Origin: Amoebophrya sp. A120
Taxonomy: Eukaryota > Protista > Dinoflagellata
Direction of reading: 5' to 3'
Length of the DNA stretch: 64,000 nt
Assembly (NCBI GenBank): GCA_905178155.1
Contig: CAJINV010000011.1
Coordinates: 2,011,939-2,075,938, forward strand
The position numbers and the translations under genes are program-made. The notes under the pieces were generated by a model. That model saw only the letters and a program-made list of their open reading frames with translations. It had not been told where the DNA came from and did no database searches. Positions 1 to 54,964 of the stretch are shown one piece after another. Position 1 is the first letter of the stretch; each line of letters opens with the position of its first letter.

Positions 1-174
1 CAGTTTGTGCTAAGTACGCGGAGAGGGCAAAATTTCTCATGCGGTAGAGGCATCACGATGTCCTCTAAAAAACTGTGATGCTAGGGCATGCATTGCAGGC
101 TTCATGGGTCATCTTCCAAAATATGCATGTCAAACTTGACAATCTTCCAGACCCAGACATTTTTGCAGTTGATA

Positions 175-2326
175 GATCACCGGCCTGCTCCATTTCCCGT
201 TCCTCCTCCGGTAAATTGGTGCCGTCACCCGGGTTATCAAGTGCAAATATCCCTGGAGGTCTGGAAACTTGTAATGCTGGATTGGGAATAGTGAATTTCT
301 TGTAATGCACAGACACGCATGCGAAATCATCTCTGCGCTGCCTAGTGTTGCGTTTACCGCATGACGATGACTACACACTGCGTTTTTGCATGACAGGCAA
401 AAGGGTCTTTTCTTGGACACGCATCACAAGCTTTGCAGTCTGTGACTGTGTCTGTCATGCCAGACAAGCATGACAAACCTTGCATTTTTCAAGACCCAGA
501 CGTATTTGCAATCCATACGGGTACTTGCCCGCGATGCACACGAGGTTGACGCAGTACCGGTTTCCCTGCTCGTCCGGCATGTTGTGGCCCAGGTGGATCG
601 ACGGGATCTCGATCACTTTTCCCACTTTCGTGTGGCTGGTTGGCATATGCATTGCAAGAGTATCGGTATCGCACTCGTAGTAATCGTATACAAATCCTAT
701 TCTCAAATTGATGTCATGCGCTTTTATACTAGTAAGTACGATAGTACTTATGCAGTCCATATGGCACCGTGATGATCTCAGAGGGCACCGGATTCAGATT
801 CGGCGACACCTGGCCCCGGTAGGAGGGGTGCCGCAGCGGGTTGTGCTCCGAGACCGACTTCGGAATTGGCTCACCGCCCCCCGTGGCGCCGCCGAAAGAC
901 TCCGGGTTGGTTTCGTTTGCGGTCACATTCTATGCATTGCAACTATGTCTGGTTCTGGAAGGATGCACGGTTTGTCATGCATATTTTGCATGGCCCATGA
1001 CGCCTGTAATGCATGCTCTAGCATCACAGATTTTTAGAGGGCTTCCTGATGCACATTCCGCATGAGAAATGCCCTGCCCGCGTAGCACAAACCAGACTCC
1101 TCTTGCTAGTCATGCAATACAGATTTTTTTGGAATCCGAAGACAGCATCACAAGTCACAACCTTCCAGAAGACATATTTGCAAGGCATACGTTCATCACG
1201 CGGTCGAAGTTCACCTCGTCGTCGCGGAACGAAGGCCACCCGTGGTACTTGGACTCCAGGTAGAACTCCAGGTAGGACCGCGGGTTCGGCCCGAATCCCG
1301 GGACCCGGAACAGCTCCTCGTTCGGGTCAGAAGAGGAGTAGAAGCTCATGTAGGCGGTGCCGTTGGGGAGCTCCTCGGGGAGCGCGTACCCGGTGCCGGT
1401 GAAGTTGAGTCCCTGGTAGAACGAGGCCTGCGGCTCGGCCAGGCGCTGGGGCACGGTGCAGCACACGTTCACGGCCGTCGCCTCGTCGACCAACCAGCGG
1501 AGCTGCGGCCGCTCGGGCAGGCAGGACACGGCCCCAAAGGGAACCTCCTCCGGTTTGGGGTACTCCTTCTGCTTCTTCCGTTCTTGCAGCGTCGTTTTCT
1601 TCTGCATCACCGAGGACTGCGGATCATTCCTGGCATCCTCGACCGCTCCGTCGACGGGGCGCTTCTTGTCGTTCAACAAATCTTTGGCGGTCCTCGTCTC
1701 CTGGTTACTTCGCTCGTCCTCTTCGCTGTTCCTTGTCGTTGACGTAACTGCATTATCAAATGCAAAAATGTCTGGGTCTGGAAGATTGCAACTTGTCATG
1801 CTAAAGCTGAAGCTCATGCAAAAATCTGTCTTGCATGATTACCAAAAGTCGTCCAGTTTTCACCAAGTCGGGAGGGAGTTTCTCATGCAGGATAGGTATG
1901 AGAGAGATCGCACAGAATCTGTCATGCTAGGTCCTGCATTCCAGACCTCATGAGTCATGGAAAAGCAGCATGACAAATCGCGCACTCTTCCAGACCCAGA
2001 CATTTTTGCATTTGATATGCATTCGGGTTCCTCACCGGTGCTCCTACGTTCGCCGCCCCTGCTGTCCCCACCTTGCTACCCTTGGGTGGCGAACCCGTGA
2101 AAAACATCTGCGAAGGCGGAGGGGTGTTGTCGCGAAGCCTCCGCAGGGCGTGGGCGACGTGTAGTGAGGCTGGGGATGTCAGTGACCACGGCGTGAAGGA
2201 CACAAGCACGTCGGTGCACATCATGGCTGAACAAACCCCGCCGAACCGCAGGGTCCGCCGGACGACGGTCCCGCTCCTTCGTGGACGCTGCCTTTCCACT
2301 GCCGCGGAAGCCGACGAGGACGACAT
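175..2326 (-). CDS. MsrB/SelR-like methionine sulfoxide reductase family protein (3' end runs off the window start)
   Basis: Removing the TIR elements at 235-517, 646-761, 931-1189 and 1754-2017 gives one frame containing ESKYHGWPSFRDDEV...HLGHNMPD..GNRYCVN, i.e. the MsrB GWPSF, HLGH and RYCxN motifs. No CxxC zinc motifs were seen. A further element ends at 174. Confidence 0.75.
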
Positions 2327-3067
2327 GGTGATAAAAAATTTTTAGGTTCTGTCTCGATAAAAATGATCTCTACTGATGCGGACCAAAACTAGAGATTCTG
2401 GTCTTCGGCAAGGACTTCAAATTCTGCAGTGTTTCCTCTGACCGAATTATCTCTCGACAACCTTCTGCACAGGAAGCAAGCGCTCAATTTTTAATAGACT
2501 TTGGAATCAATCACAGCACCAACGGATGAATGTACGTCTTTTCCCTAAGTCAAATTCTTCTTGAGAAAACAAGAACGAAATATCTGCGTATGGTCTTGCT
2601 CTTCTTCCCCTCGAAATGGTAAGTCGTGCTTTCAATCATTTCGCCCGCCCCTAACATCATCACCTGCAAACGCGACAACCTTGCAGACATTGCGCAGCTC
2701 TCGCGTTCGCCCGAGATAAATCAAATGCTCACAACAGTAGTACTTCAAACGACAAATTCACGGTGTTGACCGAGTTTCAGAGTTCTTCAGCAAAAATATT
2801 CACGACGGAGAAAGAGTGTATTCTCGGACGCGAAGATGCAACGGTGATACGGTATCATACCGCCCCCGGGTGAACGTAAAGATTTTTCGCGAATTCATTT
2901 TCCACAGCTTTTTTCCTTTTGTTCGTTCGAAGTAGTAAAATGGAAAAGAAAAGAACTTTCGTCATTTACTTTCCGGGGCTTTTTGCTTCCACCGGATGAT
3001 TTCCACTGCAAAACCAAAACCACAGTACTTAATTAGTCAAAGTCTCCCGACCGCTTCTACATACATT

Positions 3068-5549
3068 TCAAAGTCTCCCGACCGCTTCAACGTACCACCC
3101 CGGTACCTGGTAAGCCACGCCATCCCCGGGCGGCGGAACGAAGGGCACGAACCACAGAAGCGGGTTGTTCCCGAGGGTGGCGCACAAATTGTTGTACACA
3201 CCGATGTCGAATTTGTGACCCTTGTCCGCAAGTAGGCCCGGATCCTCGGGTAAGGACGCGCCACCACCTCGCTCCCGCTTATTCGAGTACTGCCCCGAGA
3301 ACAGCTCGCTGGCCCCGGTGTCCACATCCGGTCGGTCGCTCCTCTTGTTTATCAACTGCAAATGTGTCTAGTCTGGATCAGGACGAGTTGTGCTGCGCTA
3401 GGTTGTCATTGTCATGCACGTTTTGCATGACCAATGATGTCTGTGATGTATGTCCTCGCATAACAGATTTTTTGGAGCTCTAGCTCTTTGATGCCTACCC
3501 CGGATGAGAACAAGTGCTCGCTTCGCGCAGCAAAAACTGCACTCCTGCAGTTGCTGCTCATGCAATACAGGTTTTTTTCGAGTTCATCAAAGATAGCATG
3601 GCAAGTTCTTGCATTCTTCCAGAGGACCACCTCTCAGATGTTGACACAATGATCTTTGCGAATTTGATATGGTTGTGCTTCTCGCAGAACTCAATGGTGG
3701 TCATGTTTTTGCAAACCAGAAAGGTGTGAAACAGGAAAAACGAGGTCACAATCCCCGCCACGAACACCGCCAGCGACTCCGCGTAGAGCGCAACGAAGAC
3801 TTTCAAGCCCTGGTCGTTCACCGTGTCGTCCTCGAGGTAGTCCCGCACCGTCTCCCAAAACGTCAAAGCGATGAGCCACAAAACCGCAGAGGAATTAAAG
3901 AGGAGGAGGTAGAAGTACTTGTGGTTGCCGTACCCGATGGTATTGTAGACCCACGGGCAGTGGTGGTCCATGCGGAGCACGCACCGGCCCAGCACCCGGC
4001 AGTGGTGCGCGCGATCCGGCTTGTACTTGGTGCACCATTTGCAGTGCCGCAGCTCCCCGTCCTTCTTGGTTTCAAAGACCACCTTCCGCACCTCGTCTCC
4101 CTTGTTCTCGTAAAAATGCCCCCAGAGGGCCGTGTCCGGAATGCCGCCAGGGTCCGTAAATATACACAGGTAGTAGCAGTACAAAAGCTGCAGGGTGAAG
4201 AAACCGAAAAGCGAGGTCAGGATAATACCTCAGGACGCGTTTATTTCCATTGATATTATACTCAGCTGCTTGAATTACAAGCTACTTAGTTAGCTACTGC
4301 TGTTACGACTTATGCGATTACATGATCATCAATCGTGAGCCATGCTGCAGGCACAAATTGCAGCAAAAATCGACATCCACTTAGCCGCCAGCATGCACAA
4401 GAAAAAATAACCTGAATAGTTAAAACCCATCGATAAATTCAACGGTCGTGGAAATAAACAAGAGAACCGCTCGAACAAAAAATCCTCGAAAACGAACTGC
4501 AAGTAATTACCTTCCTGCTGCACATCCTATTGAGAGGAAAAATCCCCCCTCCCCATATCGAAAAGGTATGTCTCCCAAAATTTGTCTTGCTGATTTGAGA
4601 CCACAAATCACGTCTGTCTTGCAAGAAGACAACTCCACAGGCTCTGCCGCATTATGCAGGCGGTTTGTGATGCTGTCGGGCCTACAGCATAGACGTTTCT
4701 CATGCTAAGCGCCTAGGCCAAATCCTCTCTACTCAGGCTTGGCAGGAGCCTGCAGCCCCCTACTGCAAGACAGACCTGATCTGTATACGCAAATCCAGCA
4801 TCAGAAACTTCCGTTTGATATGGGGAGGGGGGATTTTTCCTTGTGATACATCCTTCTCCGCGTTTCCAAGCCGCGGCACCAGGTGTAGTGTGACGTAGCT
4901 GCTGGCAAGGTAGGTGACAAGCGAGTATGCATTGCAAATATGTCTGAGTCTGGAAGCTTGTAATGCCAAAAGTGGATGAGAGTTCCACTGCAATACGATG
5001 CCAAGCATGACAAATCTTTGGGCTCTTATGTGTTGCGTGTTCCGCATGGCAAACTGCGTTTTTGCGCGACAGGTAACAGGACCGCTTCGTGCCCATGCAT
5101 CACAGATTCTTGAGTCATGTCAGACATGCAAGACAAATGTAGCAATCTTCCAGAGGACCCAGACATATTTGCATTTGATAGCGAGAGAATGAAAACGATC
5201 GGAATCAGCTTGTTCACGTCCGGACCCTATGCACTGCAAATATGTCTGGGTCTGGAAATCTGTGATGCTGAATTGAGCATGATTGAAGCGCTTGTAATGG
5301 CAGCCAGGCATGACAAGTTCTGGAGAGGCCTGCTGATGGTGATGCCTACTACGCATTACAAATTGCGTTTTTGCAAGACAAAGCAAGCTCCTCTTTTGCT
5401 GCTCATGCAACACAGATTTTCCAGGAATGCAAGACACGCACCACAAGTTCCACTGTTCCAGACCCAGACACTTTTGCATTTGATAGACCCCGCTTCCTGG
5501 GCGGCCCGGGGGCGCCTGCGCCCGGCCCCGCGGCGCCGTACTCTTTCAT
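3068..5549 (-). CDS. DHHC-type protein S-acyltransferase (palmitoyltransferase)
   Basis: Contains CKWCTKYKPDRAHHC...MDHHCPWV, DPG and TTxE motifs and hydrophobic segments. Exons are joined across elements 3350-3669, 4528-4848, 4926-5180 and 5228-5485 and a GT-AG intron at 4229-4510. The start reads MKEYGAAG. Confidence 0.92.
4926..5180. mobile_element. Introner/MITE-like TIR element, family A (most abundant; representative copy)
   Basis: TIR TATGCATTGCAAATATGTCTG..TCTGGAA / TTCCAG..CCCAGACATATTTGCATTTGATA, direct repeat GCGAG. Other copies include 235-517, 1754-2017, 5228-5485, 8569-8825, 9882-10135, 11558-11823, 11982-12245, 13901-14164, 15452-15707, 18052-18305, 24311-24578 and 49082-49333. 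Confidence 0.93.
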
Positions 5550-6394: not shown

Positions 6395-9300
6395 TTACAT
6401 GACCGCACAGAACCCGGACGAGGCCCCCGACCCGCTCTTTTTTCCGCCTCCCATGAAAAAGGCACTCGAACTGTGCGGCAGCTCGGCCGAGGAGTCCATT
6501 CCCGCACCGACAAATCGGGTGAAATCCGCCCCGTCACCATCGATCCCCGCGAGCAGTTGCAGCTCCTCGCCGCAATCCGCCGCCGCCTTGGAGAGTTTCG
6601 GCCACACCGCTGGGTCGTCCTATGCAGAGGAAAAAAAGTGTTTAAGTGTAAGAACTTTGGAGGTTGAGTAGCATCACAAATTCGCTTTGCGTTTATAGAA
6701 AAAACCTGTCAACATGATGCGCAGGTAGCACGTCAAAACGCGTATGGTCTGACCCTATGACCACGCACATCCAGCATGACAAGCGTGACTGTCTCGCATC
6801 ATCTTCTGCAATACAAACTTACACTTACACAGTTTTTTTCTTGCGATACGTCCGGGTGTTCGTCTAAACGGCTGTGGACGTCGCCTTTTTCCACCACGTA
6901 TTGTGAGGAATAATCCCCCCTCCCCATATTGAAAGCGCATCCTTCTGAAAAACTGTGATGCGGATTTGTGGCCACAAATCCTGTCTGTCTTGCATGCAAG
7001 CAGATCCAGAGAATCCGCCGCATTATGCAGGCGGTTTGTGATGCTGTTGGCCCTAGACCATCGACGTTTTTCATGCTAGGAGCCTACGCCAAAACGTCGT
7101 GGCTCAGGCTTGGCGTATGCCTGCAATCCTCTATTAGAGGATTGCAGACAAATCTGCACGACAAATCTGATTTGTGTACTGAAATCCAGCATCAGAAACT
7201 TCTTTTTGCTATGGGGTGGGGGGATTTTTCCTTTTGATACCACGCCGTGGAATTTCAGTTGGTCCATCTCCAAATCGTAACACCGGCGCCGGTACGATAC
7301 CCGAATGTCCGTTACGTTGGACTTGTCCGTATCCAAGGAAAAGAGTGTTACAGTTACACATTTGTTGGGCAATCACAATCAGCAACACAAACTTTCTCTG
7401 CATGACAGCCGAAACTTGCAATGCAGAGATCATTAGCAAAAACACCTATGAAATCAAGTACCTGAGCACATTCGGCATGACAGACCTTGTCTCTCTTGCT
7501 TTGTCTGCAACACAATGTGTAACTGTAACACTTTTTTCTTCCCGTAGTCCGAGTGGTTCCAGTACTTTGACTTGTGCTTCCACGACTTGTAGACGCAATT
7601 CGGCCCGAGGTATCAAAGTGAAAAAAGCCCCCGCCCCATATTCAACAGACAATTTGTGTTGCTGGATTTGAGTACGCAATTGAGCTTTGTATTGCAGCAA
7701 GAGCTTGTCAGCATATTTTAAGTCCATGTGGGTACGCATCCGGGTCGCAGCTGAGCATGAGCAACAAGTCTGACATAGGCGGAAACGGACGACAGACTCG
7801 CTGCACAATGCGCCACATGGGTGCCGTTTGCCTTGTACGCAAGACAAAGTTGATTTGTAGTCACAAATCAGCATCACAAATCTCCTGTTCGATATGGGGA
7901 GGGGAGATTTTTCCTCACAATACGAGGAGCTGCTCCTTTACCTGCGGGTCCAGCCCGGACTGGAGGACGGAATTCTGCGCGATCTCGCAAATGTCGGTCA
8001 GGGACATCTTCCAGTACTGCTGCGCGATGGTGTACTCCTCTAGCAGCGGGTGGTCGGTGGCGTGAAACAGGAGTGGCTATCAAAAGGAAAATAAATCGTC
8101 CCTCCCCATATCAAAACGAAGTTTCTGACGCAGGACTTGCGTAGACAAATCAGATTTGTCTTGCTGGAGAGGATGAACACAGGCCCATACTAAGCCTAAG
8201 TGGAAAGGCTTTGCTCTAGGCGTCTAGCATGAGAAGCGTCCGCGCTGTAGGCCCATCAGCATCATGAGCGCAAACCTTCTACACAATGCTGCGGAGCTTG
8301 TGGAGTTGTCTTCTTGCAAGACAGACGCGATTTGTGGTCAGCTCAAATCAGCAACACAAATTTTCGGAATAAACGTACCTTGTTGATATTTATGGGGAGG
8401 GGGGTTTATTTTCCTCGCGATAGTGGCATGTCGGTCGACAGGCTGACGTTCAGGCCCCACCGGAAAAAGTCGTAGAAGGGAGAATTCGGCAACCGCTGGA
8501 ACAGGGCGTTGTTGGACAACGGCGACAGGGCGATCCCGATCTGGGACAAGTAGTAGACGTACGCCAAGTATCAAATGCAAAAATGTCTGGGTCTGGGAAC
8601 TTGCGATGCTAAAATGTGGATGATAGAAACAGTTCCGAATGCATCAACCCAGTTTGACAACTTTCCAGAACGCTTTCTCATAGGGAATCCGCATCAGAAA
8701 CTGCGTTTTTGCATGCACAAAAGAGGCCGCGACTTTTGTTGGTTATGCAATGCAGATTTCCTACTTATGGAAAGCCAGCATGACAAGTTCCAACCTTCCA
8801 GACCCAGACATATTTGCAATCCATACTAAGGGCGGACTGGACTTCAGCGTGAGTCCGTGGGAAATGCCGTTCGCCAGCAAGTACCCGCAGGCCAAGTGGT
8901 CCACGGACCCGGTCATGCCGCAGTGCGGGCGGAAGGCGAGCGAGTTGAGGCCGAAAGACTCCCGGATCTTGGAGAGAATGGACAAATTTGCGTAGAGGAA
9001 GTAGAGGTAATACCGGTAGTTGACGTGCTTATGCGTCTTCTTCGTCAGTTTCGCGGGGTCCGAAGGCCCGGCAGTATGCATTGCAAAAGTATCGTACTCG
9101 TAGTTGTGATTGCAATCATGCATTACAAATTTCTTTGTCATGTCAAGATAAATCCGCATTAATCTCTCATGCAGAGGAAATTTGTAATGCACTTTATACT
9201 AGTACGATGCTTTTGCAGTTCATAGGCAGCGAAGGTCGTCGACATGGACTCCTCTCCCACGGAGTCGAAACCCGACACGTGGTAGAGCAAAAAATCGTAG

Positions 9301-12300
9301 AGCGCCGGATCCGAGTCCGGATTCAAGGTGACCGCAATCAGGGGCTGGAACAGGTTTCCCAGCCACTGTTGGAAGCTGTTGCACACCTGAAACGACCGCG
9401 GAATCTGCACCAGAAACTTCGCGTTTTTCCTGGACGCGGCGGCCCCTGCGGCTTCTCCTTTGTGCGTCGGGAAATTTTTCTGGACCCACTGCGCGACCGA
9501 GGTCCATTCCTGCTTCGAGGCCCCCGTGACGGTGATGCGAAACTCCGAGTAGGTTTGCTTGTGCGCCTTGTGCAGCGCGGCATTCGAGACCAGGCGCCGC
9601 TTCACTGGGCTGCTAGGAGTTGTTGCTGCTTTGTTGGCTGTTGCTGATGTTGTACTTCTAAGACGTTCATTATCTTCGCGCTCGTCACTGTTGCTATTTC
9701 CTCGGGTTAGCACCACCGACTTGAGAATCTCCGCGAAAAAATCTTGCTTGTTCATTTCCCCGACGCCGTCGCTCTTCGACGTAGATGTTGCACTCGGCGT
9801 CTTCATTAAGACCGGCTTCAGAAACCGATCCCGCAAGCGCCGACTGCCGTACACGTTCTTTTTTTGTTGAAACAGTTCAAATATCAAATGCAAAAGTGTC
9901 TGGCGGGTCTGGAAGAATGCAAGTTTGTCATGCTTGTCTGGCACGACTCGAGAATCTGTGTTGCGTAGGCACGAAAGAGCCCTCTTAACTGTCATGCGAC
10001 AAGGCAGTTTGCCATGCGGAATACGTAAGACATGGCAGCCACAAAATTTGTCATGCATACCTGCGTATTGTGGCGCGTCAATCATTCACTTTCAGCATTA
10101 CAAGTTTCCAGACCCAGACATTTTTGCATTTCATATCAAAGTTCTGAAACAAACTCTCGTCGGCCTGCACCTGCAACGCGTCGACCGTCATCTGCTATCA
10201 AATGCAAATATCCCTGGAAGATGTCTGGAAATTTGTGATGCTGATTGAGAAAGACGAGGGCGCTCCTTCAATTGACGGCCAAGCATAACAAGTGTTGGAG
10301 GTACTACAGTGTTAATGTCTACTCTACACGACAAAGCGAGCTTCTGCATGACAGAAAAATCAAGCTTTTCATCTTGGGTAACGTGCATGGCAGATTTGCG
10401 AATCATGCAAGCCAAGCATGACAAACCTTGCATCTTTCCAGAGGTGGACCCAGAGGACATATTTGCAGTTGATATCTGCTCCTCTTTCTCGATCCCCGCG
10501 TGGGCAAACTCCTCCCGCAAAGTGGACGGGTGCCCAGCGTCCTATTCGGAGTAAAAACGTCCCCACCCCAGAGCTGTCGCGCAATTCTTTTTTTTTTTGA
10601 TTAGGCCCCATTTTCATGTATGTATTGTATGTGATTGTGTGACGGCGGGAACGGCACCCGCCCGTTGTGCTTAATAATGCGCTCCCACGCGCGAATTTCC
10701 TTTCATCTTTTGCATCACCATCATTTTCTAAGCTAGGAGCCGGTGTGCGTTACTTAACATGTGAAATCTAATCTCACGAACACCGAGCTGTCGCGCAATT
10801 CTGCATGCCAAAAAAGTTTCTCACGCGGAGCCCTATGGGAAGCATTTTCTATTCGTGTTGTCGAATCTGTGATGCTAGAACCAGCATGCTATGCTAGATC
10901 TGTGATGCTTCTGAATTACAATTAGCTAAACAGGATTAATACATTACGAGGACAAACTTGTCATGCCAGACAACCAAGGCTGGCTGATTTGTCTAGCACG
11001 TTTCCCATCTTGACTCTTGTGTGGGGACGTTTTTAATCAGGATACGTCCTGCCACTTCTTCTTCGTGAACTCCAGCAACTCCCGGGCTGTCATAGCGCAC
11101 GCGAGCTTCACCTGCGTGTCCACTTTGCCGATCGAGTAAAAGTCCTGCTTCGTCATCTCAGCAGAGTCCTGCTCCAGCTCGTGGTTTAGGAACATGTGCA
11201 AGTCAAAAAGCCTTTCCAGCAGCTCCAACCGTTGGTAGCAGAAGGACCGGACTGCCGCAGCCTGCACGATCTTGCTGGTCGTTGCCAAATCGTATCCACA
11301 GAAAAAAACCCATCCACATCCATTTTTTGCATGACAAACACGTGACTTGATAGGTGTCTTACATGACAAATTGGACGTGGATGTGTTTTTTCCTGTGGAT
11401 AAATCGCTGAGAAATTCTTCAAAGGACGGCACCTTCAGGTTCTTTGTCATGATCTGCGAGGAAGATGAAGAACCTCCTGTCAGCGTCAAGATGCCCTTCG
11501 GGAAGGAAAACTTCAAATTTTTCATCGACCCCGGTTCCTGGGTCGGCGGTGCACTGTTATGCATTGCAAATATGTCTGGGTCTGGACGAGTGTACTTAAC
11601 TTGTCACGCTACATCTGGATCGTGGAAAAATTTGTGTTGCATGATTAGCAAAAGAGGTCCACTTTTGAGCAAGTTTAGAGGCAGTTTCTCAGACAGGAAA
11701 GGCATGAGAGAGATCTCACAGAACCTGTCATGCTAGGCCGTGCATGCCAGACCGCCTGGGTCATGGAAAACCTGCATGACAAACCTAGCAATTTTCCAGA
11801 CCCAGACACTTTTGCATTTGATAACTGTTGCTGGTCGTGTCCGCGATTTTGACCGCGTATTTTGACGTTTGCTCCTGCTCCTTAGGACTTTGGTCTTCTA
11901 AATTTTTCGTGACCCCGGAAACGAGCGTCCGGATTTTTTTCGCCCCACCGGTGGTCTCGTACAATTTCGAGCGAAAGCAGTTATGCATTGCAAATATGTC
12001 TGGGTCCTCTGGAAGGTTGGAACTTGTAATGCTAGCTTTCCATACCTAGGAAATCTGTATTGCATACTTAAGCTTGACCAACAAAAGTCGCGGCCTCTTT
12101 TTCACAGAAACGCAGTTTCTCATGCGGATTGCCTATGAGAAAGCGTATATGCAAAGTTGTCATGCTGGGTTGCATTCGGAACTGTTTCTATCATCCACAT
12201 CCTAGCATCACAAGTTTCCAGACCCAGACATATTTGCGTTTGATAGCAGTACTTGCCCCGCAACGCGATCAGGTGCAGCAGCGCCCGGCAGATCACCTTC

Positions 12301-15300
12301 CGCTGCATCAACTCCGTCTCCGTGAAAAGCTGCTTACTATCGGGCGACACGTGTATCCTGGAATAGTGCTTTTCCTTCGTGGCGAGCGCCGCCAGCTCCT
12401 TGTATTCTATCCCGTGTAAAAACGTCCCCACCCCAGAGTGGTCATGATGCAGATTCGCGATCACAGGAAGATTTGTAATGCGCATCTCTATGAGAGGCAT
12501 TTCCAATCGTGTTTTGGAATGTGTAGCGCTGTAAACAGGATGAGCAGATAGATTTGTGATGCGGTTGTCCTTGCTCACAAGCACTACACTACGGACTGCA
12601 ACTTGTCATGCGTGGCTCCCAAAGCTTCTGGATTTGTGTTGCTAAGTTCCCAACTTGACTACGGGGTGGGGACATTTTTACATATGATATATTCCTGGGC
12701 CCGCTTTCGCATCAATCGGATTTCGTCCAGTTTTTGCGCGTCGGTGTTCGCCGTCCCGACGGAAAACACGGAGGAAAGGCGGTTCTCGATCCCCGTGGGG
12801 CTCTGGTCCTTATCAAATGCAAATATGTCCGGGTCTGGAACATTCCGAGACTTATAATGCTCTGCTAACAGGAGAGAAAGATCTGTCATGCATGTTGCGT
12901 TACCGCGCTACCTCTTTGCAATGCAAAAACGCTCTTTCTCATGCAGTTTACGCAATACCTAGTCGAAGCAGCAACTTGTCATGCGCGTCCCCGTATTGGA
13001 GGTTGCTCATGATCCACTAACTAGCATCACAAGTTTCCAGACATCCAGACATATTTGCAATTCGTAGTCCTCCCCCTCCAGCGACTTCTTTTTTTTCACG
13101 TCCGTGATCACCCGCTTCGCCATATGCTGAGCAAAAACATCCCCACCCCAGAGTCAAGAAGGGGATTTTGCAACAGAAACCTAGAAGTTTTGGGAGGACT
13201 CACACATCACAAATTGCGGCCCGTATTGTAGTGTAGGTTAGCAGGGACAAACGCATCACAAGTCCATCTACTTCACCTGGTTACAGCATTACAAATGCCA
13301 GAACACGACTAGAAATGCCTCTCATGCTCCTAGGGATCCGCATTACAAATGCTCCTGTCATTGCGAATCTGCATGACAACTCTGGAGGGGGGACGTTTTT
13401 CCAAATGATAAGCCACGTGCTTCATGATTTTCGCGCCAAAAGCGGTCTCGGTCTTCTCCACTGAATCCATGTGCATCGCCAAGGCGTCCTTCAGCGTGGG
13501 CTTCACGTGCGGCAGCCCCGGGAGCTCAATCTGCTCCAGATTCAACGTGCGCAAAATCGAAAACAAGCGGTCCATATCAAGTGCAAAAGTGTCTGGGTCT
13601 TGAAGCTTGGAACTTGTGATGCTAACGCTGGACTCTAAAAAAATCTGTATTGCATGACCAGCAAGAGGAGCCCAGTTTGTGCTACGTGAGGAGGGTATTT
13701 GCCATGCGGGATAGGCATCAGGAAGGCCTCTAAAAATATGCGATGCTAGATATTGCATTACAGAAAGCCTAAGTCATGCAAAATATGCATGACAAACCTG
13801 GCAACCTGCCAGACCCAGACATTTTTGCAATTGATAGTCCATCAGGGTCTCGTACCGGTAGCGACACCGGATGTCCGGGATGTTGGTCACGTCGGGGTTG
13901 TATGCATTGCAAATATGTCTGCGAGGTCTGGAAACTTGTGATGCTGGGTGGCGTATTGTGAGGAGGCCAGAAGTGCTGGCTCGGCATGACAAGTTGAAGT
14001 CTCTGAGCTCCTGCGTGTTGCCTATTCTGCATGACAAACTGCGTTTCTGCATGACAGAAAAATGGAGCTGCTCTTGGGTAACGTGCATGAGAGATTTAAG
14101 AGTCATGCCAGACAAGCATGACAAACATGCATTCTTCCAGACCCAGACATATTTGCACTTGATAGGTTATTCGACCGGGGAAACGGGAACAAGTTCCACA
14201 GGCTGGTACCCAGCTGCTTCGCTTTGGTCGCGTCCGAAAACCCACCCTGGAGGCAGCTGTTCCGCGCGATCTCGCACAGGTCGATGTTGCTGTACTTGTA
14301 CAGCTGTTTTGCGACCTGGTACTCTTCCAGAAGAGGTTCTTCCGTCTTGTGGAACTGCATGGGGTCGTCCGTGGACTATCCTGAGTAAAAACGTCCCCAC
14401 ACCAGAGTCAGGATGGGGATTTTGCAACACAAACCTAGGAGCTTTGGGAGTCACGCATGACAAGTTGCACTCCGCGGTGTAGTGCAGGTTAGCAAGTGCA
14501 GCCGCATCACAGATTGATCTGCTCATCCTGTTCACAGCGTCACAAATTCCAATACACGATTGGAAATGGCTCTGATGGGGATGCGCATTACAAGTCTTCC
14601 TGTCTTTGCAAATCTGCATTACAACTCTGGCGTGGGGACGTTTTTACTCAGGATATGGACAGGGAGACGTTCAGGCCCATGGAAAACAGCATATGGATGT
14701 GTCAGGATCGAAATCGACAAAGTTGAAATGATTTGCCATGCATAAAATGCAGCCCACAAAGTGCCTGTGTTGCAGAGTAGGCACAGGAGGCAGATTGTGA
14801 GCCTTTTGAGGGGTAGAAACTGAGCTGCTAAAGTAGCATGACAAAGAGCGTCTTCCTTACCCAAACAGCATCACAAGGTGGATTTCGGCTCTACCCAAAT
14901 TTGTCATGCGCCACTTGGAAACTGGGACTGGGTTACTTACACCTGGAATCCATTTTATGCATCACAAATCATAATTTCAACCTTGTCGATTTCGATCCTG
15001 ACACATCCATACAGCAGGTCAAAGGGGTTGTCCTTGTACGGAACGAAGAGCGCGTTGTTCGACAGCGGGCTCACCGCGCACCCGACCTGGCAGAGGTAGT
15101 ACAGGTAGCACAGGACCGTATCCACTGCAAATATCCCTGGATGTTGTCCCGAAGAATGCAAGTTTGTCTTGCGTGGCTACCATGACACACTTCAGTCTGT
15201 CATGCACGTTACCCAAAAGCCACGGCTTTCCGTCATACAAAAACGCAGTTTGTCATGCTGGATAGACAATCCCTGGCATTATAGCTCAGAAATTTGTCAT

Positions 15301-18300
15301 GCTGAGCCGTCATCTGTATCGTCCGAATCAGATTCGCCAGTCAGCATCACAACTTTATTCCCGACGTCCAGGGTGGATATTTGCAGTTGATAGACCGGCG
15401 TGTTGGACAATTGAATCCCGTGGTTGACGCTGTCCGCGGTCAAAAACGCGGTATGCATTGCAAACATGTCTGAGTCTGGATTTGTGATGCAGGACTTCAA
15501 GGACAACAAGATCTGTATATGCATGAATACCATTGGCCAGATTTATTTTGTCGTGCTGGATGGCAGGCAGTTTGTAATGCTAAACACGAATGAATCCGCA
15601 AGGAGCCGAGGGAAATTTCTCATGCCGTTATGCCGTACAAGCAGCAAGTTTGCAATGCAAGTATCAGCAACACAAGTTTCCAGACCCAGACATTTTTGCA
15701 TTTGATACGCGGTGTTTAAATGCAACGGCGACCCGGACTCCCCGCAGTGCGGGCGGAACTTGAAGGTGTTCAGCCCCAGCTTCGAGCGGAGGGTGTTCAA
15801 CACGTACAGGTTTGCGTGCATGTAGTAACACCAGTAGGCGTAGGGCGGGTTGTCGCTGTCCGTCGTTTTCTCCTTCGGCACGTCCTTCCCAAATTTCGGC
15901 GGTGGGGGGCAGTATCACAAGAAAAAAGTGCTACATTGTGTTGCAACCCCAGCATGACAGACCACCTCTGTCATGCCAGACATGCTTGATGTTCCGAGCT
16001 TCATGTAACACTTTTTTCCTGTGATAGGCAGGTGTCCATGTTTATCCAAGAAAAAAACAGTGTTAGTGTAACTTTCTTTGATTGCCAGCATCACAAATTT
16101 GCTCTACATGACAGAGAACATCTGTCATGCGTGGCTTGTAAGGGAAAACACATGTGAAAAGAGGACTTCATGGCTGTCTGGCATGACAGGTGTAACTCTG
16201 TTGCATATTCTGCATTACAGAGTTACAGTTTTTTTCTTGCATAAGGTTTATCTCCAACTTCGACTCGTCGTCCACGGAGTCGAACCCAGAAGTGTGGGTC
16301 CTATCCTGTGCAAAAGTATCGCACTCGGATTGCAGTCATGCATTACAAATCTTTTTCTTAGGGTAAATCAGCATGGCAAATTTTATTTCTCATGCTGAGG
16401 AAATCTGTAATGCAATTAGTATACGAGTACGACCCTTTTGCACTAGACATAGGTCAAAAATTCCGCCAACTTCGGGTTCGCCGCCGGGTTGATCGTCACT
16501 TCGAAAAGCGGCTGAAACACGTTGTCCAGTAAATCTTGAAAGGTTTCCACGAACCCCAATTTCTTGAACACGTTAAAAACCCGCGGACACTGGATCATCC
16601 AACGATTGTTTATCCAGGAAAAAAACTGTGTAAGTGTAAGTTTCTTGGAGGAATCGCATCACAAGTTTGCTCTGCATGACACAGAAAACCTGTCATGCGT
16701 AGTACCTAGTACGTGAAAACTACACGCACGAAAATTGCCTCTGAGTGATGCATGTCCAGCATGACAAGTGTAACAGTTTTGCGTTTTCTGCAACACAAAG
16801 TTACACTTACACAGTTTTGTTCTTGGATATTGTTCTTGGAAAACAGCTGGTTGTCCACCACCCAGTTCGCCAAATCCGTCCACTCCTTCTTATGAAACTG
16901 TCAGGATCGAAATCGACAAAGTTGAAATACCTTGTAATGCATAAAATGGATGAAAGTTGTAACCCAGTTTCCAAGTGGCGCATGACAAATTTGGCTAGAA
17001 CCGATGAAATCCAGTTAGTCATGCTGTTTGGGTAAGGAAGACGCCTTTTGTCATGCTACTTTAGCAGCTCTACTTCTTCTACCCTCAACAGGCTCACAGT
17101 CTGCCTGTCTTGCGTACTCTGCAAGACAGACATTTTGTGGGTTGCATTTTATGCATCACAAACTACTTATTTCAACTTTAGCGATTTTGAATCTGACACT
17201 CCCATACTTCTTGTTGGTGCCGTAGATCGACACCCGGTACTCCGTAAAGATCGCCGTGTGCTCGTCGCGGTCCAGGATCTCTTTCGTCAGTTCCGCAAAA
17301 TACTTGCCGTTCAGGTGGTTGGAGGATTTCAAAAACACGGTGCGCAGATTATGACTTGCTCAAACGTTACAATCTCAAACGTTAAAATAGAATCTGGAAT
17401 TTGTGTTGCACGATGAGCATGACAGACTCGCACAGCGTTCCACCTTTTGCAATACAAATTTAGCCAGATTGTAGTGGGGTTTGGGGCTCCGGAACTTGTC
17501 ATGCGCAATCCTATGAGAGTTGGCTAGATGATGCACTCTTGCATCACAGATTTCCATATTCTAGTGCAACGTTTGAGATTGTAACACCTGAGCGGGTTAT
17601 ACAGATCACTGTTGCCGAAGGGGTTGTACTTCGCGTTGAAGTGGTCAAACCGGTCGAACAGATTTTCCTCTGCCTGTATCCTGAGTAAAAACGTCCCAAC
17701 CCCATAGTTATCGTGCGGATTTGCGATTAAGTACAGGAAGATTTGTAATGCACATCTCCATGAGAGGGAAAGGTATTTCCAATCGTGTTTTGGGGTTTGC
17801 AATGCTGTAAACGGGATGAGCAGATGAATTTGTGATGCGGCTGCACTTGCTAAACTGCACTTCTACACTACGGACTGGAATTTGTCATGCGTTGCTCCCT
17901 GAGCTTCTGGGTTTGTGTTGCTAAGTTCCCATCTTGACTATAGGGTGGGGACGTTTTTACAGAGGATAGCCTGCACGTCCAGACTATCCACGGTCATGGC
18001 GTCGGCGGAGTGGATCCCGGACTTCGCGAACACTTGTTTCAGCGTCAGCCCTATGCATTGCAGAAATGTCTGGGTCTGGAAAAGTGGAACTTGTGTTGCA
18101 TGTCGTGCATTCCTGAAAAATCTGTGTTGCACAGCCAGCAAGAAAGTCGCTACTTTTTCGTCCTGCAAAAACGTAGGTTGTCATGCGCGCTACGCACCAG
18201 CCGGCGTCAAGTATACTTGTCATGCTTGGCTGCACTTGAGAGCGCCAGTTTTATATAAACTTTAGCATCACAAACTTCCAGACCCAGACATATTTGCATT

Positions 18301-19230
18301 TGATAAGCCCCTCCTTCGTTTTCCGGTCAACCAACACGATCTCGTCGCCGTGTATCAAAAGGAAAAAGCCCCCCTCCCCATACCGAAAAGGTATACTTTC
18401 GGAAATTTGTGATGCTGATTTGTGGCCACAAATCGCGTCTGTCTTGCAAGAAGGCAAACTCAGAAGGCCCCCCGCATTATACCGGTGGTTTGTGATGCTG
18501 TTGGGCCTACAGCATGGACTTTTGTCATGCTGAGCGCCTAGGCCAAAACCTCCCCCACTCAGGCTTGATGTGGGCCTGCAGTCCTCTACTGCAAGACAGA
18601 GCGGATTGTGGCCACAAATCTGCATCACAGATTTCCGTTTTGATATGGGGAGGGAGCATTTTTCCTTTTGATACCGTGCTCCCGGTACTTCCGTTGAATG
18701 AAGTCCAGCAGGTGGTTGGCCGTCATGGCCGCGGCCAGGTGCACGTGGGTATCCACTTTCGCGAGGCGGTAGAAATCCCCCTTCGACTGTTGCACCTGCC
18801 GCTGCTCGCGTGACTGACTGTTCAGCAGTTTGTGGATGGAAAAGCTCCGGGCGAGCAGCCCGAGCTCCCTCCTGCAGAAGCTCTTCACGGTGCCGGACGT
18901 CGAAATATTCCGGAGTTTGGCTTCGTCCTGGCAGAACTCGTGAAACAGCGCCGGCGGCAGGATTTTTCCCGTGCTGTTTTCGGCGGTGCTGTCGGCCACA
19001 AGTTCCTGGACCGTGAAAACCCCATTCTCGCACTCGTAGGAAAAGGCATCCGCGGCCGGCTTTTCGAGGTGTTGTCCCCCGCTCGCTGCGGTTGATGCGA
19101 CCACCTGGTTCGGAGGGATGTAAAGGTACTTGGAGCGGAGCTTAATCGCATACACCACGTCCGCACAGGCTTCGGCCGCGCCCGGTGCATTTTCCTCCCC
19201 GGTGACCACGCACCGCACGTACTCAGACAT
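6395..19230 (-). CDS. AMP deaminase with two tandem AMPD domains (N-terminal intact, C-terminal degenerate); 31 TIR-element introns
   Basis: Domain 1 has [37 protein letters not shown] and SLSTDDP. The frame continues without a stop through the linker (about 12400-13570). Domain 2 has [28 protein letters not shown] and SLSTDMP. Confidence 0.88.
9075..9224. mobile_element. Introner TIR element, family F (short; GCAAAAGTATCGTACT)
   Basis: 150 bp, direct repeat GGCAG. Relatives: 646-761, 16302-16451, 34650-34807, 34889-35007, 60255-60399, and a copy near 42233. Confidence 0.9.
10588..10784 (-). mobile_element. retroposed insertion (poly(A)-tailed, 17-bp TSD) nested in a family C introner
   Basis: GAGCTGTCGCGCAATTC is duplicated at 10571-10587 and 10785-10801. 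A T11 run abuts the left copy. Confidence 0.8.
11293..11401. mobile_element. short (109 bp) introner element, stop-free and frame-preserving
   Basis: TATCCACAG.AAAAAAC / GTTTTTT.CTGTGGATA, direct repeat AATCG. 109+5=114 nt, and the ORF track reads straight through it. Confidence 0.88.
14377..14655. mobile_element. Introner TIR element, family C (TATCCTGAGTAAAAACGTCCCCAC)
   Basis: Perfect 24-bp TIR, direct repeat TGGAC. Relatives: 10543-11044, 12408-12689, 13123-13410, 17677-17968, 45539-45997, and copies near 27656, 41525 and 43332. Confidence 0.93.
14692..15011. mobile_element. Introner TIR element, family D (TATGGATGTGTCAGGATCGAAATCGACAA)
   Basis: Long perfect TIR, direct repeat CAGCA. 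Relatives: 16891-17206, 35519-35831, 55611-55919, and an eroded copy ending at 48993. Confidence 0.93.
16611..16829. mobile_element. Introner TIR element, family E (TATCCARGAAAAAAACTGTGTAAGTGTAA)
   Basis: TIR with direct repeat TTGTT. Relatives: 6621-6848, 7330-7546, 16043-16243, 26842-27053, and a short copy at 15913-16026. Confidence 0.9.
17350..17601. mobile_element. Introner TIR element, family G (GCTCAGGTGTTACAATCTCAAACG)
   Basis: TIR with direct repeat CAGAT. Relatives: 41904-42170, 42983-43226. Confidence 0.9.
18353..18673. mobile_element. Introner TIR element, family B (CCCCTCCCCATA subterminal)
   Basis: TATCAAAAGGAAAAA..CCCTCCCCATA inverted at both ends, direct repeat CCGTG. Relatives: 4528-4848, 6899-7239, 7611-7922, 8078-8422, 23628-23943, 41156-41469. 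Confidence 0.92.
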
Positions 19231-20023
19231 TCTTTCCAATTCTGAAAATGATCCTAGAATGTTGTACTAAATGTTGTAAAATCCAAGGATATCAAGCGGT
19301 GACAGTTGCTGTCAGTAGTTTTAGGGCTGCAGTACGCCCGAGGAGAGCAAAAATATATGAACACTCGCTCAAAAAGAGGATGAATATTCTTTCAGTCATT
19401 TCTTCTGGTAAAAACCGTCGCATCACGGAACGACAAAAGCAAAATAAGAGGAAGAAAGGACGCAAAGAAATTTGAAGAAGAAAACGCAGCAGCACAAAAG
19501 ATATGATTTATGGACCACCTCGTGCTGCGTCAATACCGTGTAAAAAGTAGTACTTTCTTAGTACCTTTCAGAAGTTCTTTCAAGTACTATGAATGAAAGC
19601 CAAAAGAAACGCATGCAGAAGACGACCGTGAAGAACTTCTTCAACATCCCTCAAGCCACACAGAATTATCAGAAGGCCAACATCTACCCATCGCTTTATT
19701 TTCAGTGTCTGTCTTTGTCTCTCACCTGCGCAAGGAAAATCTACTTGTTTGCCTGGTGCTCCACTACTTGAAAACTCTTTACCATGTAGTTCACACCTCT
19801 CGTCCCACCACTTCCTCTGAACTGTCGCTTGTTCGGGGGAACAACGAGAAGCAAATTTCGGGATCATCCGCCTCCACGTGCCGAAGTGAAAATAAACAAC
19901 TCGGCGCAGAAGTAAAGCTTGGCAAACGAAACTCAAGTCCACGCCACCGTGTTATTTTCCCAGCATTACAGATTACTTTTAAAAGGGAAGATGAATGTAG
20001 TGTGTCGTGTCCTGTTTGAAAGA

Positions 20024-51383: not shown

Positions 51384-53201
51384 TCAAGAAGAACTCGCTG
51401 CTTCACTTGCGGCGTCCTCCTCCCCGGTTTTGTCCGCAGAAGCCGGTGCTGGAGCAGGGACGAGCGCCGTTTGTTCTTCTTCTTGCAGCGGAGGTTTCTT
51501 CATCCATTCGGCAAACCCTTCCTTGTCGTACTCGTAGAAAAGTTTGTGCGGGTCGTCTCTGAGATTGAGCATGACGGCGCCATTCTCGTACGGCTTCGGA
51601 GGACGAGTAGTACTAGCATGATCATGAACATGATCTACTCCAGCAGGACGAATAGTACTAGCAAATAGCATGTAGCACTCGGCGAGCCAAGCCATGGGCC
51701 CCACCGCATCCGCTTGCCGCATCTCCTCGACCCCGGCTCGGGCGTGAAAGTCCTGGTACGACCACGCGGCAGCAAACCCGTGCAGTTTCAGACTGGCTTC
51801 GCCCTTCCCGAACTGGTAATTGATCGCGGCATTCTTATTTCGCGCGATGCCCTTGTGCTCCGTCTCTTTCTGGGGGCGGATCTGCACAGACATCGAAATC
51901 ACTATTTTCGCCTGCATCCCCTGCTCCGCCCAGCTCGTCTCCTTGTTGCCCGGGTGGTAGTAGTACTCAAACACGTTCAACGCACCAGCGAGTGACTTTT
52001 GGCCGTGGTTGAAGTACAATCGCGCGACTTCGTGCAGCGTCTGCAATTGAAGGCTGCGGTTGCGGATGTTGTATGAGACGGAAATCAAATGAATCCCCCC
52101 TCCCGTGAGATTTGCATACCGAGTAGAAGAAGAAGTCCCAGGAGGTTCATCGCGTAGAATACACGACAAAAAATCATTTCTATGCCATTGCATCCAGGCA
52201 GCTTGTTGGGCAGATGGTGTATAGTAAGCTTGTGTCGCCATTAGATAGAAGTCTGCTTACAGCTGTTGGGCAGGGCAGACAAACCCTCCATCGAGTATAG
52301 ACACATGGCGGGGGATTTTCGCTGTCGATACCTCTTCCCCAAAATCCTCCACGGAAATAGCGTAGGCGACGTAGTAGGGCCCGGCTTCCACCCCGGACGC
52401 CAGCTTCTCGCTTGCCCGCCACCACACCGCCCCCGGGATGCGCAACAGGCGGTGGCATCCCACCACGTCCTGGAAGGTTCCGTCGGGTCCGCCACAGCCC
52501 GGCTGGCCCGCCCAAGCCCCGGTCCGGAATGCCGCGCCCCCGTTGACGTGCACCCACAGAAGCTCCGTCACCCAGACCAGGGGTGCGCCCGTCGGGTCGA
52601 CCGCCAGGCGCCAGATGGGCAGCAGACTTTTGTTCTTGATGTCTCCAGTAGTACTAGACGCCTCGCTTTGCTGCTGCATCGAGTCCGGACAGGGCGTGCG
52701 CGCACTGTAGGCGACAATAGACGGAACCGTCTTCGCAGAGGCCCCGGCTTCCGGGTGAGGGTCCACCAGGTCGTCTTCTTCGTACCAGTCCCAGGCATGG
52801 AACCAGAAACTCTGCCCATCCTATCAAATGCAAATAGCGATCTGGGTCTGCATGACTAAAAACCGCGTTTTTATTGCATCTCATGAAAGGGGAGGACCTT
52901 GCACTTGCTTTGCGTGGACGAGCATCACAAACCTGTGAAAATCATCATACAAGACCCACATCATGACAGATCTTGCACCGGTCCAGTCAGACCCAGCAAT
53001 TACATTCACAATTCCTAGATCCGTCGCCGTTCCGAAGCGGATGATGTCATTGCCGTTCTTGTACTTTTTCTTTTCCTCGACCAGCTCGTGGCCCTGCTCC
53101 AGGAAGGCAAACTGCTGCAAGGCCCGCGCATGGTCGCAGTGCAGCAAAGAGCTGCAGCCGGTGGACAGAAGTATTAAAACCGCCTGCTTGTTCATTGCCA
53201 C
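51384..53201 (-). CDS. hypothetical protein
   Basis: Three consecutive coding-like minus-strand ORFs. The first two join in phase via a GT-AG intron at 52821-53009. The junction to the 51384-52241 ORF was not resolved. Confidence 0.45.
52821..53009 (-). other. GT-AG intron derived from a degenerate family A element
   Basis: ATT|GTGAAT...GCATTTGATAG|GAT joins two ORFs in phase. Residual TIR sequence (CTGGGTCTG / CAGACCCAG) remains. Confidence 0.6.
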
Positions 53202-54964
53202 CGCGTGCGGCAGGCCGAAGCCACGTGGCTCTCGGAACTCCAGCGTCTAGTACCTCTGCGACATCTGTTTATTGCCTCGTCTGGAACTACGTTGCAGTTT
53301 AATGGATTTCAATTTCTTTTCTCCCTGTTTTTTCAGATCAAATCTCGTGCTATTTTTGCGGTTCTTTCCGAATAAACCGAATATGATGTAGTTGCGTGGT
53401 GCTCGGGCAAGTTTTTTAATTACACACAATAAATTATTTACGTTGAGTTGCGCACCGTGTCGAGGAAAGTAGAGAAAGTCCAGTAAAAAGTACCGGACTA
53501 TGTGTTGTGTGCCGCAAGATTTTTCCCAAGAGGGATCTTGGAGGTGTCACCTTCTAGCCGATACTGTGGGAAGTCCACCTTGTTACACCTGTGAGTGTAA
53601 CAACAAAACCGCATCAGGAGCAATTCGGCAGGTTGTTCTTTGGCAAGATCACGTGAAAAAGCGGAGGTCCGCGCATATTGCAACTACAGAGAAGCACATC
53701 CATGAGAGCTGCGGACAACGAGAACGACAACGACTTCCAATTTTCCTGCAAAAATAAAACCGATCCCGATTTTAAAAAACAGTAGCGTAGTAACTACCTC
53801 CCGCAACCGACGGGAAGCGGTAGTAGAAACCTTCAACCGACACGCTTCAAACCACAAGCTCGTAGACAAGATTCACACAAAGATGCGTACACAAATTACT
53901 TCCACGATGGGTTCTGCTGCGGGAACAATGAATCAATAGCCCAGGACTGGAATTGTATTCGGTTCTTCAACAGTAATCACCATTCAACCGTGCTATACTG
54001 CGCTGGAAAGCTTTATTATCTTTACGCACAGATCACATTAAGTCGTCATGTCGTCTTGTCGCTGGCAATGGGGATCGCGGCCTGAAACCAGGGGCGCTCT
54101 GAAGATTGTCTTCAAGTTCAAACTTGCTCGTCAGTAGCGCTACATTACAGTCGTCAAAAGCGAAACCAAATGAGTTTGAAACATTCATACCCGACTCGAA
54201 GATATAATCCTATTCGTACTTTACAAAATATAGCCGCCGGGGCGGGGGTAGTGAGGTCGTGGGCGTTTTTTTGCCGACCGCAGCCTTGGCCGCGGCTTTG
54301 CTTTTTATGGGCTCGCCATACCACCGTGAGTAACGTTATGCCGCACGGTATGGCGGCCACTTGGGAAACGTCGCAAATTTTGGCACATTTCCAAAATTCC
54401 TTTCCGAAAGCCAGCCCCGATGCTATGGGGCCGATCCGGGTGCCACGGGGGGCGCCCAAAAAGCGAAGAAAAACCGGGCCCATAGCATGCGGATTGGCTT
54501 TGCGCGTCTGGCGCGCTTTTTATTTTTCGCGTTTTTATTTTTCACGCCGGCGCTTTTTGCAAAGCTTCCCAGGCTCTAAAACCGGCGAAAAGGCGGCCGC
54601 TTTCGCGGCCACCCAAAATACTCCGAAATCGCGGCCGTGCCAGGCTGTTTCGCTGTTCTGATTTTGGGCGCGTTTTTTGCGCGCCCCTTTTTGGGCGCCC
54701 CAAATCGCCAGAAACGAAGGCGGCGGGCGCCTCAGAAGGGCGCCCCTTTTACCGGCTCCCCTGCGTCGTTTTATCAAGTGCGAATCGATAGTTTTCGACC
54801 TGGCTTGTTTGCCGCAAACGCCCCGGCCGCTTGATAAGTGAAAACTTTTTATGCTCAAAAACACTTCCGACCGCTTGAAAACTGCCGGTCGTTTTTCAGG
54901 GTATATGGCAAAAAAACTCCCTGGTTAGAACCGTTCGGTGACCTCACTACATATAAACGGTGTC

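Follow-up and report, generated by a model that had tools for sequence, protein, structure and literature searches.

Introns in the window (the whole stretch of DNA analysed here, 64,000 nucleotides) are mostly short elements that start with TAT and end with ATA, and a short box recurs in their interiors. What reads this box? The earlier note on the sequence had proposed selected binding sites for one trans-acting factor—either a transposase or a splicing or RNA-binding protein—or else repeated hairpin modules. The question bears on how the introners of Amoebophrya move and are spliced: neither a transposase nor U1 is reported as found in A120 in the parts of the genome paper covered here (PMC7789003).

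TAT..ATA elements and the genes that carry them

Elements were detected from their terminal inverted repeats (TIRs) and flanking duplication (TSD) only, the box being ignored. This detector gave 74 calls in the window and none in 107 kb of base-shuffled DNA. One false call (33101–33750) was removed and five elements, which came from inspecting stray boxes and TIR-end matches, were added by hand to give a set of 78; two partial elements are included in the density count below. The 78 elements measure 109–502 bp, fall into 11 TIR types (labelled A–K), start with TAT, end with ATA and have a perfect 5-bp TSD in 62 cases. A pattern scan further retrieved 147 external loci (544 kb), every one on contigs of one public assembly, from which another 391 elements were obtained (469 calls with the window), a set enriched for family A by design. 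There, where a 4/5 match was required, the TSD was perfect in 312 of 391; with one TAT/ATA mismatch tolerated by the detector, TAT stands at 98–99% of the 782 external ends and A at positions 11–13 in 86–92%, and families F, G and H have no clean A-run. A near-full-length counterpart outside the window exists for 72 of the 78 elements, and for these the best identity has a median of 83%. In viral contigs the family-A TIR pattern had 0 matches.

Being short, bounded by TIRs and TSDs, present in many copies and devoid of a transposase ORF, the elements answer to the description of MITEs. No autonomous element was found among the 469 calls or the 10 long candidates listed, whose longest stop-free stretch (238 aa) lies in repetitive insert DNA. 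Long copies with foreign inserts occur at 10543–11044 and 45539–45997 in the window and at L024:632, L028:5307, L049:571, L050:3862, L066:3310 and L070:6017 outside it; several of these inserts resemble retroposed DNA in having duplications of 8–19 bp and tails of poly(A) or (ATG)n/(ATC)n/(AATG)n, and by eye their breakpoints mostly fall at a CATG box.

Removal of each element together with 5 nt leaves long minus-strand frames, among them an AMP-deaminase-like gene (Table 1), one exon of which matches Pfam PF19326 and whose protein apparently has two deaminase-like halves, judged by eye. Other Pfam matches among the minus-strand genes are DHHC (3670–4229) and UvrD-like (46385–47610). All long reconstructed genes in window 1–64000 lie on the minus strand, and Amoebophrya is said to have co-oriented gene blocks of this kind. 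The span singled out by the earlier note, 931–2017, consists of two family-A elements and the exon between them.

Table 1 Elements, boxes and gene features of the window discussed in the text; > and < give the orientation of a box
Feature	Position	Strand	Observations
Family-A element	235..517		Contains the inverted pair 453-475; 288 nt skipped in likely-RNA contigs
116-bp element	646..761		No interior matrix score of 8 or more; one strict 8-mer at 712; precisely spliced
TSD copies of element 931..1189	926-930 and 1190-1194		1 mismatch
Family-A TIR element, 259 bp	931..1189		Non-canonical intron of a minus-strand gene
Box cassette in 931..1189	973..1028	+	> 973-980 and > 1005-1012, a 32-bp direct pair
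Box in cassette 973..1028	1021-1028		<; 16 bp and 48 bp from the other two boxes
Boxes in 931..1189	1060..1152	-	< 1060-1067, < 1114-1121, < 1145-1152; the last two form a 31-bp direct pair
Exon between two family-A elements	1190..1753	-	0 strict boxes; lies in a stop-free frame of 406 aa once elements are excised
Family-A TIR element, 264 bp	1754..2017		Near-perfect 36-bp TIR (97%); TSD 1749-1753 / 2018-2022
Six boxes in 1754..2017	1794..1975		> 1794, > 1827 (33-bp pair), > 1881, > 1920, < 1936, < 1968 (the last two a 32-bp pair)
AMP-deaminase-like gene	6398..19266	-	1530-aa frame once 31 elements with 5 nt each are removed
Family-B example	14377..14655		Six boxes in a single orientation; three direct pairs (31, 33, 31 bp)
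Family-C example	18353..18673		Three direct pairs, 31-32 bp
Decayed C-like element	52072..52330		Flanks mismatched at 4/5; no matrix match of 8 or more; spliced; sets the register
725-bp TAT..ATA element, another family	54229..54953		No matrix match of 8 or more, no box array; spliced as 730 nt

A conserved box concentrated in the elements

The window holds 116 copies of TGTNATGC and 129 of GCATNACA. Limiting N to C, G or A defines a strict box with 240 sites, of which 233 lie in 20,454 bp of element (11.4/kb), one in 23,571 bp of reconstructed exon (0.04/kb) and six in 19,975 bp of other DNA (0.3/kb), three of the six within element-like remnants—bearing out the claim that boxes are dense in elements and sparse elsewhere. 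The 78 full elements contain 231 strict boxes, against 5.7 (maximum 13) in 100 dinucleotide shuffles. At least one is present in 76 of the 78, and the number per element has a median of 5, with one or none in 9 of the 469 calls.

The full motif is approximately aaRYY-TSYVWTGC-W, that is aaRYY-T[G/C][T/C][C/G/A][A/T]TGC-W; it is asymmetric, spans about 14 bp and is both longer and looser than the boxes named in the earlier note. In 16 cluster alignments, mean pairwise identity was 0.87 for boxes, 0.84 for TIRs and 0.71 for spacers, and boxes exceeded spacers at p<0.01 in 15 of them, so that boxes held up in the comparison with spacers within families that had been proposed as a check; at an identity of 0.71 within clusters, spacers do not diverge freely, as had been supposed. 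CpG decay was considered, and rejected, as the origin of the motif and as the cause of its conservation. In matched TG/CA context the gap between box and spacer persists. CpG observed/expected is 0.66 in element interiors versus 1.15 and 1.27 in two exon stretches. One TIR variant (families A and E; for example window 931–945) qualifies by score as a box in its own right, pointing outward at 7 bp from the end, and in the family-E consensus this TIR-borne box pairs directly with the last interior box at 31 bp (112 to 143).

Spacing grammar and helical phase

The boxes had been described as often forming inverted pairs separated by N6–8. The example at 453–475 indeed reads TGTCATGC-N7-GCATGACA, and the second, at 14101–14123, begins AGTCATGC with one mismatch; however, the window holds seven strict pairs of this form, against 27 direct pairs at 31–33 bp and 24 inverted pairs at 46–49 bp. 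Direct pairs with a spacing of 31–33 bp are present in every one of the 11 families and in 68 of the 78 elements of the window, far above random placement (observed versus expected: A, 46 vs 7.4; B, 17 vs 2.2; C, 17 vs 0.7). By weight matrix they recur in 322 of 391 external copies, which stood outside the matrix training, and inverted 15–16 bp pairs in 114 of 391. Inverted 14–16 bp pairs were seen in 0 of 34 copies of family C, 3 of 28 of B and 2 of 60 of E; family B shows a single box orientation in 21 of 28 copies. Inverted pairs at 15–16 and 46–49 bp are common in A, G and H (those at 46–49 bp in F too); B, C, E, I and J have few or none. These spacings fit a cassette of about 48 bp with alternating sites at about 0, 16, 32 and 48 bp, mostly part-filled and complete in one D consensus. 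Within direct pairs, T at the fifth core position is commoner in the second site (218 vs 49 of 597).

A period scan over the 16 cluster consensuses peaked at 10.25–10.5 bp, and the helical repeat of B-DNA is 10.4–10.5 bp. Phasing between cassettes was compared with a null in which cassettes were randomly shifted by up to 5 bp, on equal period grids for observed and null. The score at 10.4 bp was 0.41 against 0.135 ± 0.079 (p=0.0015; p=0.002 with one consensus per family and 0.0055 without family A), given that the half-turn offset for inverted sites was picked from cassette-internal phases after these were seen and that related families are not fully independent replicates. Element length modulo the helical repeat showed no phasing in the 16 consensuses (R<=0.26). 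Conservation, a spacing fixed in 11 families and the 10.4-bp phasing support the proposal that the boxes may be selected binding sites for one factor.

Timing of selection and kinship of families

In substitution trees of 11 clusters (N>=14), box cores changed about 4-fold less than spacers on internal branches (0.010 vs 0.038 changes per site per copy) and about 2.3-fold less on terminal branches (0.0355 vs 0.083). The box/spacer ratio accordingly rises from 0.26 to 0.43 (odds ratio 1.64, p=6e-7), a contrast that is not clean because terminal branches contain unsampled transposition history. In matched TG/CA context the internal-branch rates were 0.0085 for box and 0.032 for spacer. The terminal box rate lies near the TSD mismatch rate of 0.046 per site, which is a sum over two copies, one of them exonic. 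These rates fit selection at transposition followed by decay; continuing selection by the host has to be considered as well.

Such host selection would act if a chromatin protein of the host bound the boxes as DNA, or if the boxes positioned nucleosomes, and if this aided tolerance, transcription or co-transcriptional splicing of the elements. One host factor would account for boxes across unlike TIRs, yet it would be surprising for a general host factor to use a motif so scarce in other DNA (0.3/kb). Positioning of nucleosomes or of chromatin proteins would suit a 10.4-bp period with A-tracts, and the phasing and the lack of strand bias would be accounted for as well; spacer AA/TT/TA frequency, however, ranges only from 0.13 to 0.30 across phase bins (raw values). 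Same-orientation spacings of 79–85 bp, about one nucleosome superhelical turn, recur in the consensus list. On terminal branches boxes still change at 0.43 of the spacer rate, as continued host selection would have it, but it is there that selection is relaxed, and elements that have no array persist and splice. On this balance we consider a host chromatin role unlikely.

The families are related to some degree. Blastn interior matches between named families amount to at most 1% of pairs, and with boxes masked, alignment at z>4 is seen for 4 of the 107 consensus pairs between families (C–F, H–G, B–H and H–C). Since some interiors thus share homology outside the boxes, the families are not wholly unrelated—to call them otherwise unrelated was an overstatement—and, common ancestry explaining part of the box sharing, they are not independent replicates. 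Taken together, the interior homology and the common tip, TSD length and splice register make them look like one old clan. The same kinship could be pressed further, to the point that the boxes are the unselected relic of one ancestral tandem or palindromic repeat common to all families. The four homologous pairs and the common TAT tip, 5-bp TSD and splice register would agree with this, but on internal branches the boxes evolve about 4-fold more slowly than spacers, and do so in TG/CA-matched context as well; their spacing is kept where spacers cease to align; and cassettes have fewer indels of at least 2 than linkers have (0.041 vs 0.061 per 10 bp, raw rates). As the sole cause of the boxes a relic is largely refuted, and we rate this explanation as very improbable.

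A fixed splice register, with or without boxes

The splice evidence is from likely-RNA contigs, which belong to one sample and to runs whose RNA nature is a guess, no listed run being registered as RNA. Joints resembling repeat artefacts were excluded (for example 5429–8775, 7365–8343, 49147–49293 and 57519–60254), as were the raw RNA reads X9 and X10, which fit the window partially (626/627 and 321/323 reads) and probably derive from another strain or species. Among the joints listed, the element plus 5 nt is skipped exactly at 21 junctions—for instance 264 nt across 931–1189 in contigs X3/X6, and 269 nt across 1754–2017, where record 1 of contig X3 connects 1748 to 2018—and the same contigs also skip a CT..AC (GT-AG) intron. 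Excision of the element plus 2 or plus 8 nt would keep the frame too; the likely-RNA contigs settle on plus 5.

Junctions with mismatched TSDs locate the cut. The 5′ exon retains at least 4 nt of the upstream copy at 924/1189 and 3344/3670, at most 4 nt at 52817/53019, 58588/58865 and 54224/54955, and exactly 4 nt at 52067/52332 (the 54224 and 52067 junctions were read by eye); among the joints listed, retention of 4 nt is compatible with 21 of 21. The splice register is fixed, even with mismatched flanks: on the sense strand, the intron is 1 nt, the TAT..ATA element and 4 nt (−1/+4). By contrast, the splice position is called variable or unknown in the legend to Fig. 3 of PMC7789003, the part of that paper concerned here. 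The first intron bases are GT, AT or CT in the six register-defining cases. The TSD does not as a rule provide a GT donor, its last position being G in 79 of 249.

The elements at window 48704, 23628, 52822–53017 and 59468–59787 have a TAT tip that is mutated or a TIR that has decayed at one end, and those at 48704, 52822 and 59468 are still precisely skipped. A 9-nt microexon segment lies at 4513–4521, between an intron and element 4528–4848. A second TAT..ATA family (54229–54953; L070 ~1175–1930) is GC-rich, about 725–755 bp long and without a box array, and follows the same splice rule; its L070 relative contains one strict box by eye and lies near a gene resembling, again by eye, RNA polymerase largest subunit. 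This family departs from the claim that all TIR families share the boxes.

Since 646–761, 52072–52330 and 54229–54953 are spliced without an array, boxes are not needed for splicing and are not in all families. This weighs heavily against the idea that a splicing protein replacing the missing U1 snRNP recognises the boxes on RNA, an idea that takes its appeal from the facts that the carriers are non-canonical introns and that U1 was undetected in Amoebophrya in the material covered (PMC7789003). Sense-strand box orientations are about equal (650 vs 607 in 249 oriented elements), no insertion-orientation bias of elements was found in the 10 clusters tested, and elements insert both ways; even one-orientation family-B copies lie in either direction within one frame that requires removal of all. 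In favour of an RNA site, the CATG palindrome in the core makes part of the motif common to both strands; single-stranded RNA leaves the 10.4-bp period unexplained. We judge such a splicing role to be very improbable.

Absence of box–box covariation

Tree-based compensatory changes were 18 against 6.0 expected for TIR pairs, 8 against 4.6 for spacer pairs and 3 against 2.0 for box pairs: the TIR arms covary and box–box pairs do not, so that the compensatory changes between paired boxes that mark a conserved RNA hairpin are missing. Mismatches in the TIR arms on the sense strand are G-U in 289 cases versus A-C in 241 (p=0.04), a weak hint, as copies are non-independent. In inverted 15–16 bp pairs the variable base was complementary in 58 of 154 versus 59.3 expected; its matches fall under the permuted level in direct pairs (167 vs 230) and 46–49 bp pairs (61 vs 97), a deficit put down to the pooling of subfamilies and orientations. 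In families C, E, F and I, folding is mostly more stable for the interior than for shuffled sequence (z as low as −12.7), as is expected of long imperfect palindromes. That the boxes are repeated hairpin modules of RNA or single-stranded DNA is therefore hardly credible, even though inverted pairs at 15–17 bp are able to pair, many interiors have negative folding z-scores and spacer pairs in consensus folds show some excess of compensatory changes: direct pairs are the most frequent unit, inverted pairs do not match in their variable base, the top mutual-information columns in 5 clusters are mostly not Watson–Crick and form no interior helix, and Rfam gave no match in window 1–20000. Of the three roles originally entertained, a DNA-binding one of the transposase type fits, whereas the RNA-binding or splicing role and the hairpin modules are contradicted.

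A predicted binding array for a mobilising protein

We consider it probable that the box array consists of double-stranded DNA binding sites for one protein that assembles the transposition complex. Multiple copies of one DNA-binding protein would occupy the phased sites in a single helical register and bend or bridge the interior of 110–350 bp until both ends meet; the paired ends would then undergo strand transfer with a 5-bp stagger. Copies that keep their array would spread, and boxes would decay after insertion. More weakly, the protein may be an integrase-type (Ginger/IS3EU-like) transposase or a cofactor, and an integrase-type protein would recognise boxes and TAT tip while tolerating TIR cores that differ from family to family. 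Splicing would run separately and depend on the element ends. Among the points against the transposition reading, the 2.3-fold conservation of boxes on terminal branches fits continuing host selection too, and the TAT..ATA family of 54229–54953 and L070 has spread with next to no boxes.

The best lead to the mobilising protein is A120 family 38, which has LTR-integrase-like homology and is tabulated as Ginger with a 5-bp TSD and TA/TA termini in the portion of the table covered (PMC12130899). Farhat et al. (2021), in the text covered, list no putative transposase in A120 and argue against general mobilisation by transposases (PMC7789003). More tentatively, and with more doubt than conviction, we suggest that at least 11 TIR families might be moved by one protein that reads the phased internal array and not the TIR core, the diverged cores then acting, whatever their sequence, as RNA stems for splicing by a ruler-type mechanism, with cuts placed 1 nt ahead of TAT and 4 nt past ATA.

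Comparison with known systems

Subterminal transposase-binding repeats as such are textbook knowledge, and Ds1 reportedly acts as an intron, to judge by the titles of cited studies. In the portions covered, Ac/Ds (AAACGG; Ds1) and Emigrant/Lemi1 are described with short repeats inside the TIRs that the transposase binds cooperatively and that are common to non-autonomous elements with unlike interiors (PMC3260210, PMC1636448). The box, too, is repeated inside the TIRs and conserved over spacers. Those systems share their TIR as well, whereas here 11 TIR cores differ and only tip and boxes are common; unlike in Ac/Ds and Emigrant/Lemi1, the array extends throughout the interior, its spacing fixed at 16/32/48 and its register at 10.4 bp; and transposase binding, demonstrated there, is a prediction for the boxes.

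The closest system is that of the A120 introners (Farhat et al. 2021, PMC7789003; Gozashti et al. 2025, PMC12130899), whose description, in the parts covered, the elements fit. Introners of about 240 nt with non-canonical splicing are reported there, with short direct repeats and an inverted-repeat motif of ‘TAT, seven less conserved nt, at least three A’ (PMC7789003); likewise, ends with TAT, 7 nt and an A-run, a boundary direct repeat and non-canonical removal are all found here. Element lengths resemble those of tabulated A120 families of ~106, 149, 209, 256, 278, 310–320 and 730 bp (41 of 58 A120 rows covered; PMC12130899), the likeness of 54229–54953 (725 bp) to the 730-bp family being one of length only. 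An interior motif, its spacing and its phasing are undescribed in the text and supplement parts covered of both papers, and a search of the literature and the PMC7789003 supplement, incomplete in coverage, met motif or phasing nowhere, apart from one match to GCATGACA in an Amoebophrya paper, PMC6482013.

IS3EU/GingerRoot elements have TA..TA termini and a TSD of usually 6 bp, GingerRoot without clear target-base preference, while Ginger2 has a 4–5 bp TSD and Ginger ends in TG..CA, according to the text covered (PMC10045372, PMC12730594, PMC6839031), which describes no comparable internal array for IS3EU/GingerRoot or Ginger2. The present elements share the TA..TA termini but differ in their 5-bp TSD, and the TG..CA termini of Ginger2/TDD do not occur, G standing at position 2 in 5 of 782 ends; they are therefore assigned neither to IS3EU/GingerRoot nor to Ginger. 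Euglenid nonconventional introns are TIR-bounded and MITE-like, lack GT-AG and have TSD-like junction repeats (PMC11282704, parts covered); these TIRs and repeats are alike, their CAG/CTG ends differ, and an interior box array goes unmentioned in those parts. Judged by the published material covered, the elements themselves are known and their internal code is apparently new, a novelty bounded by the textbook status of subterminal binding repeats as such.

Implications

The box array offers a precise bait for the mobilising protein, and it suggests that many of the 1,954 reported A120 families form one clan. The probable signal for transposition, in the interior and at the level of DNA, is separable from that for splicing, at the ends. 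The fixed −1/+4 register would permit exact annotation of non-canonical introns and constrains the splicing machinery. Should a single mobiliser and ruler-type splicing both prove true, these elements would be two-code selfish introns, with an inner DNA code for jumping and an end code for U1-independent removal.
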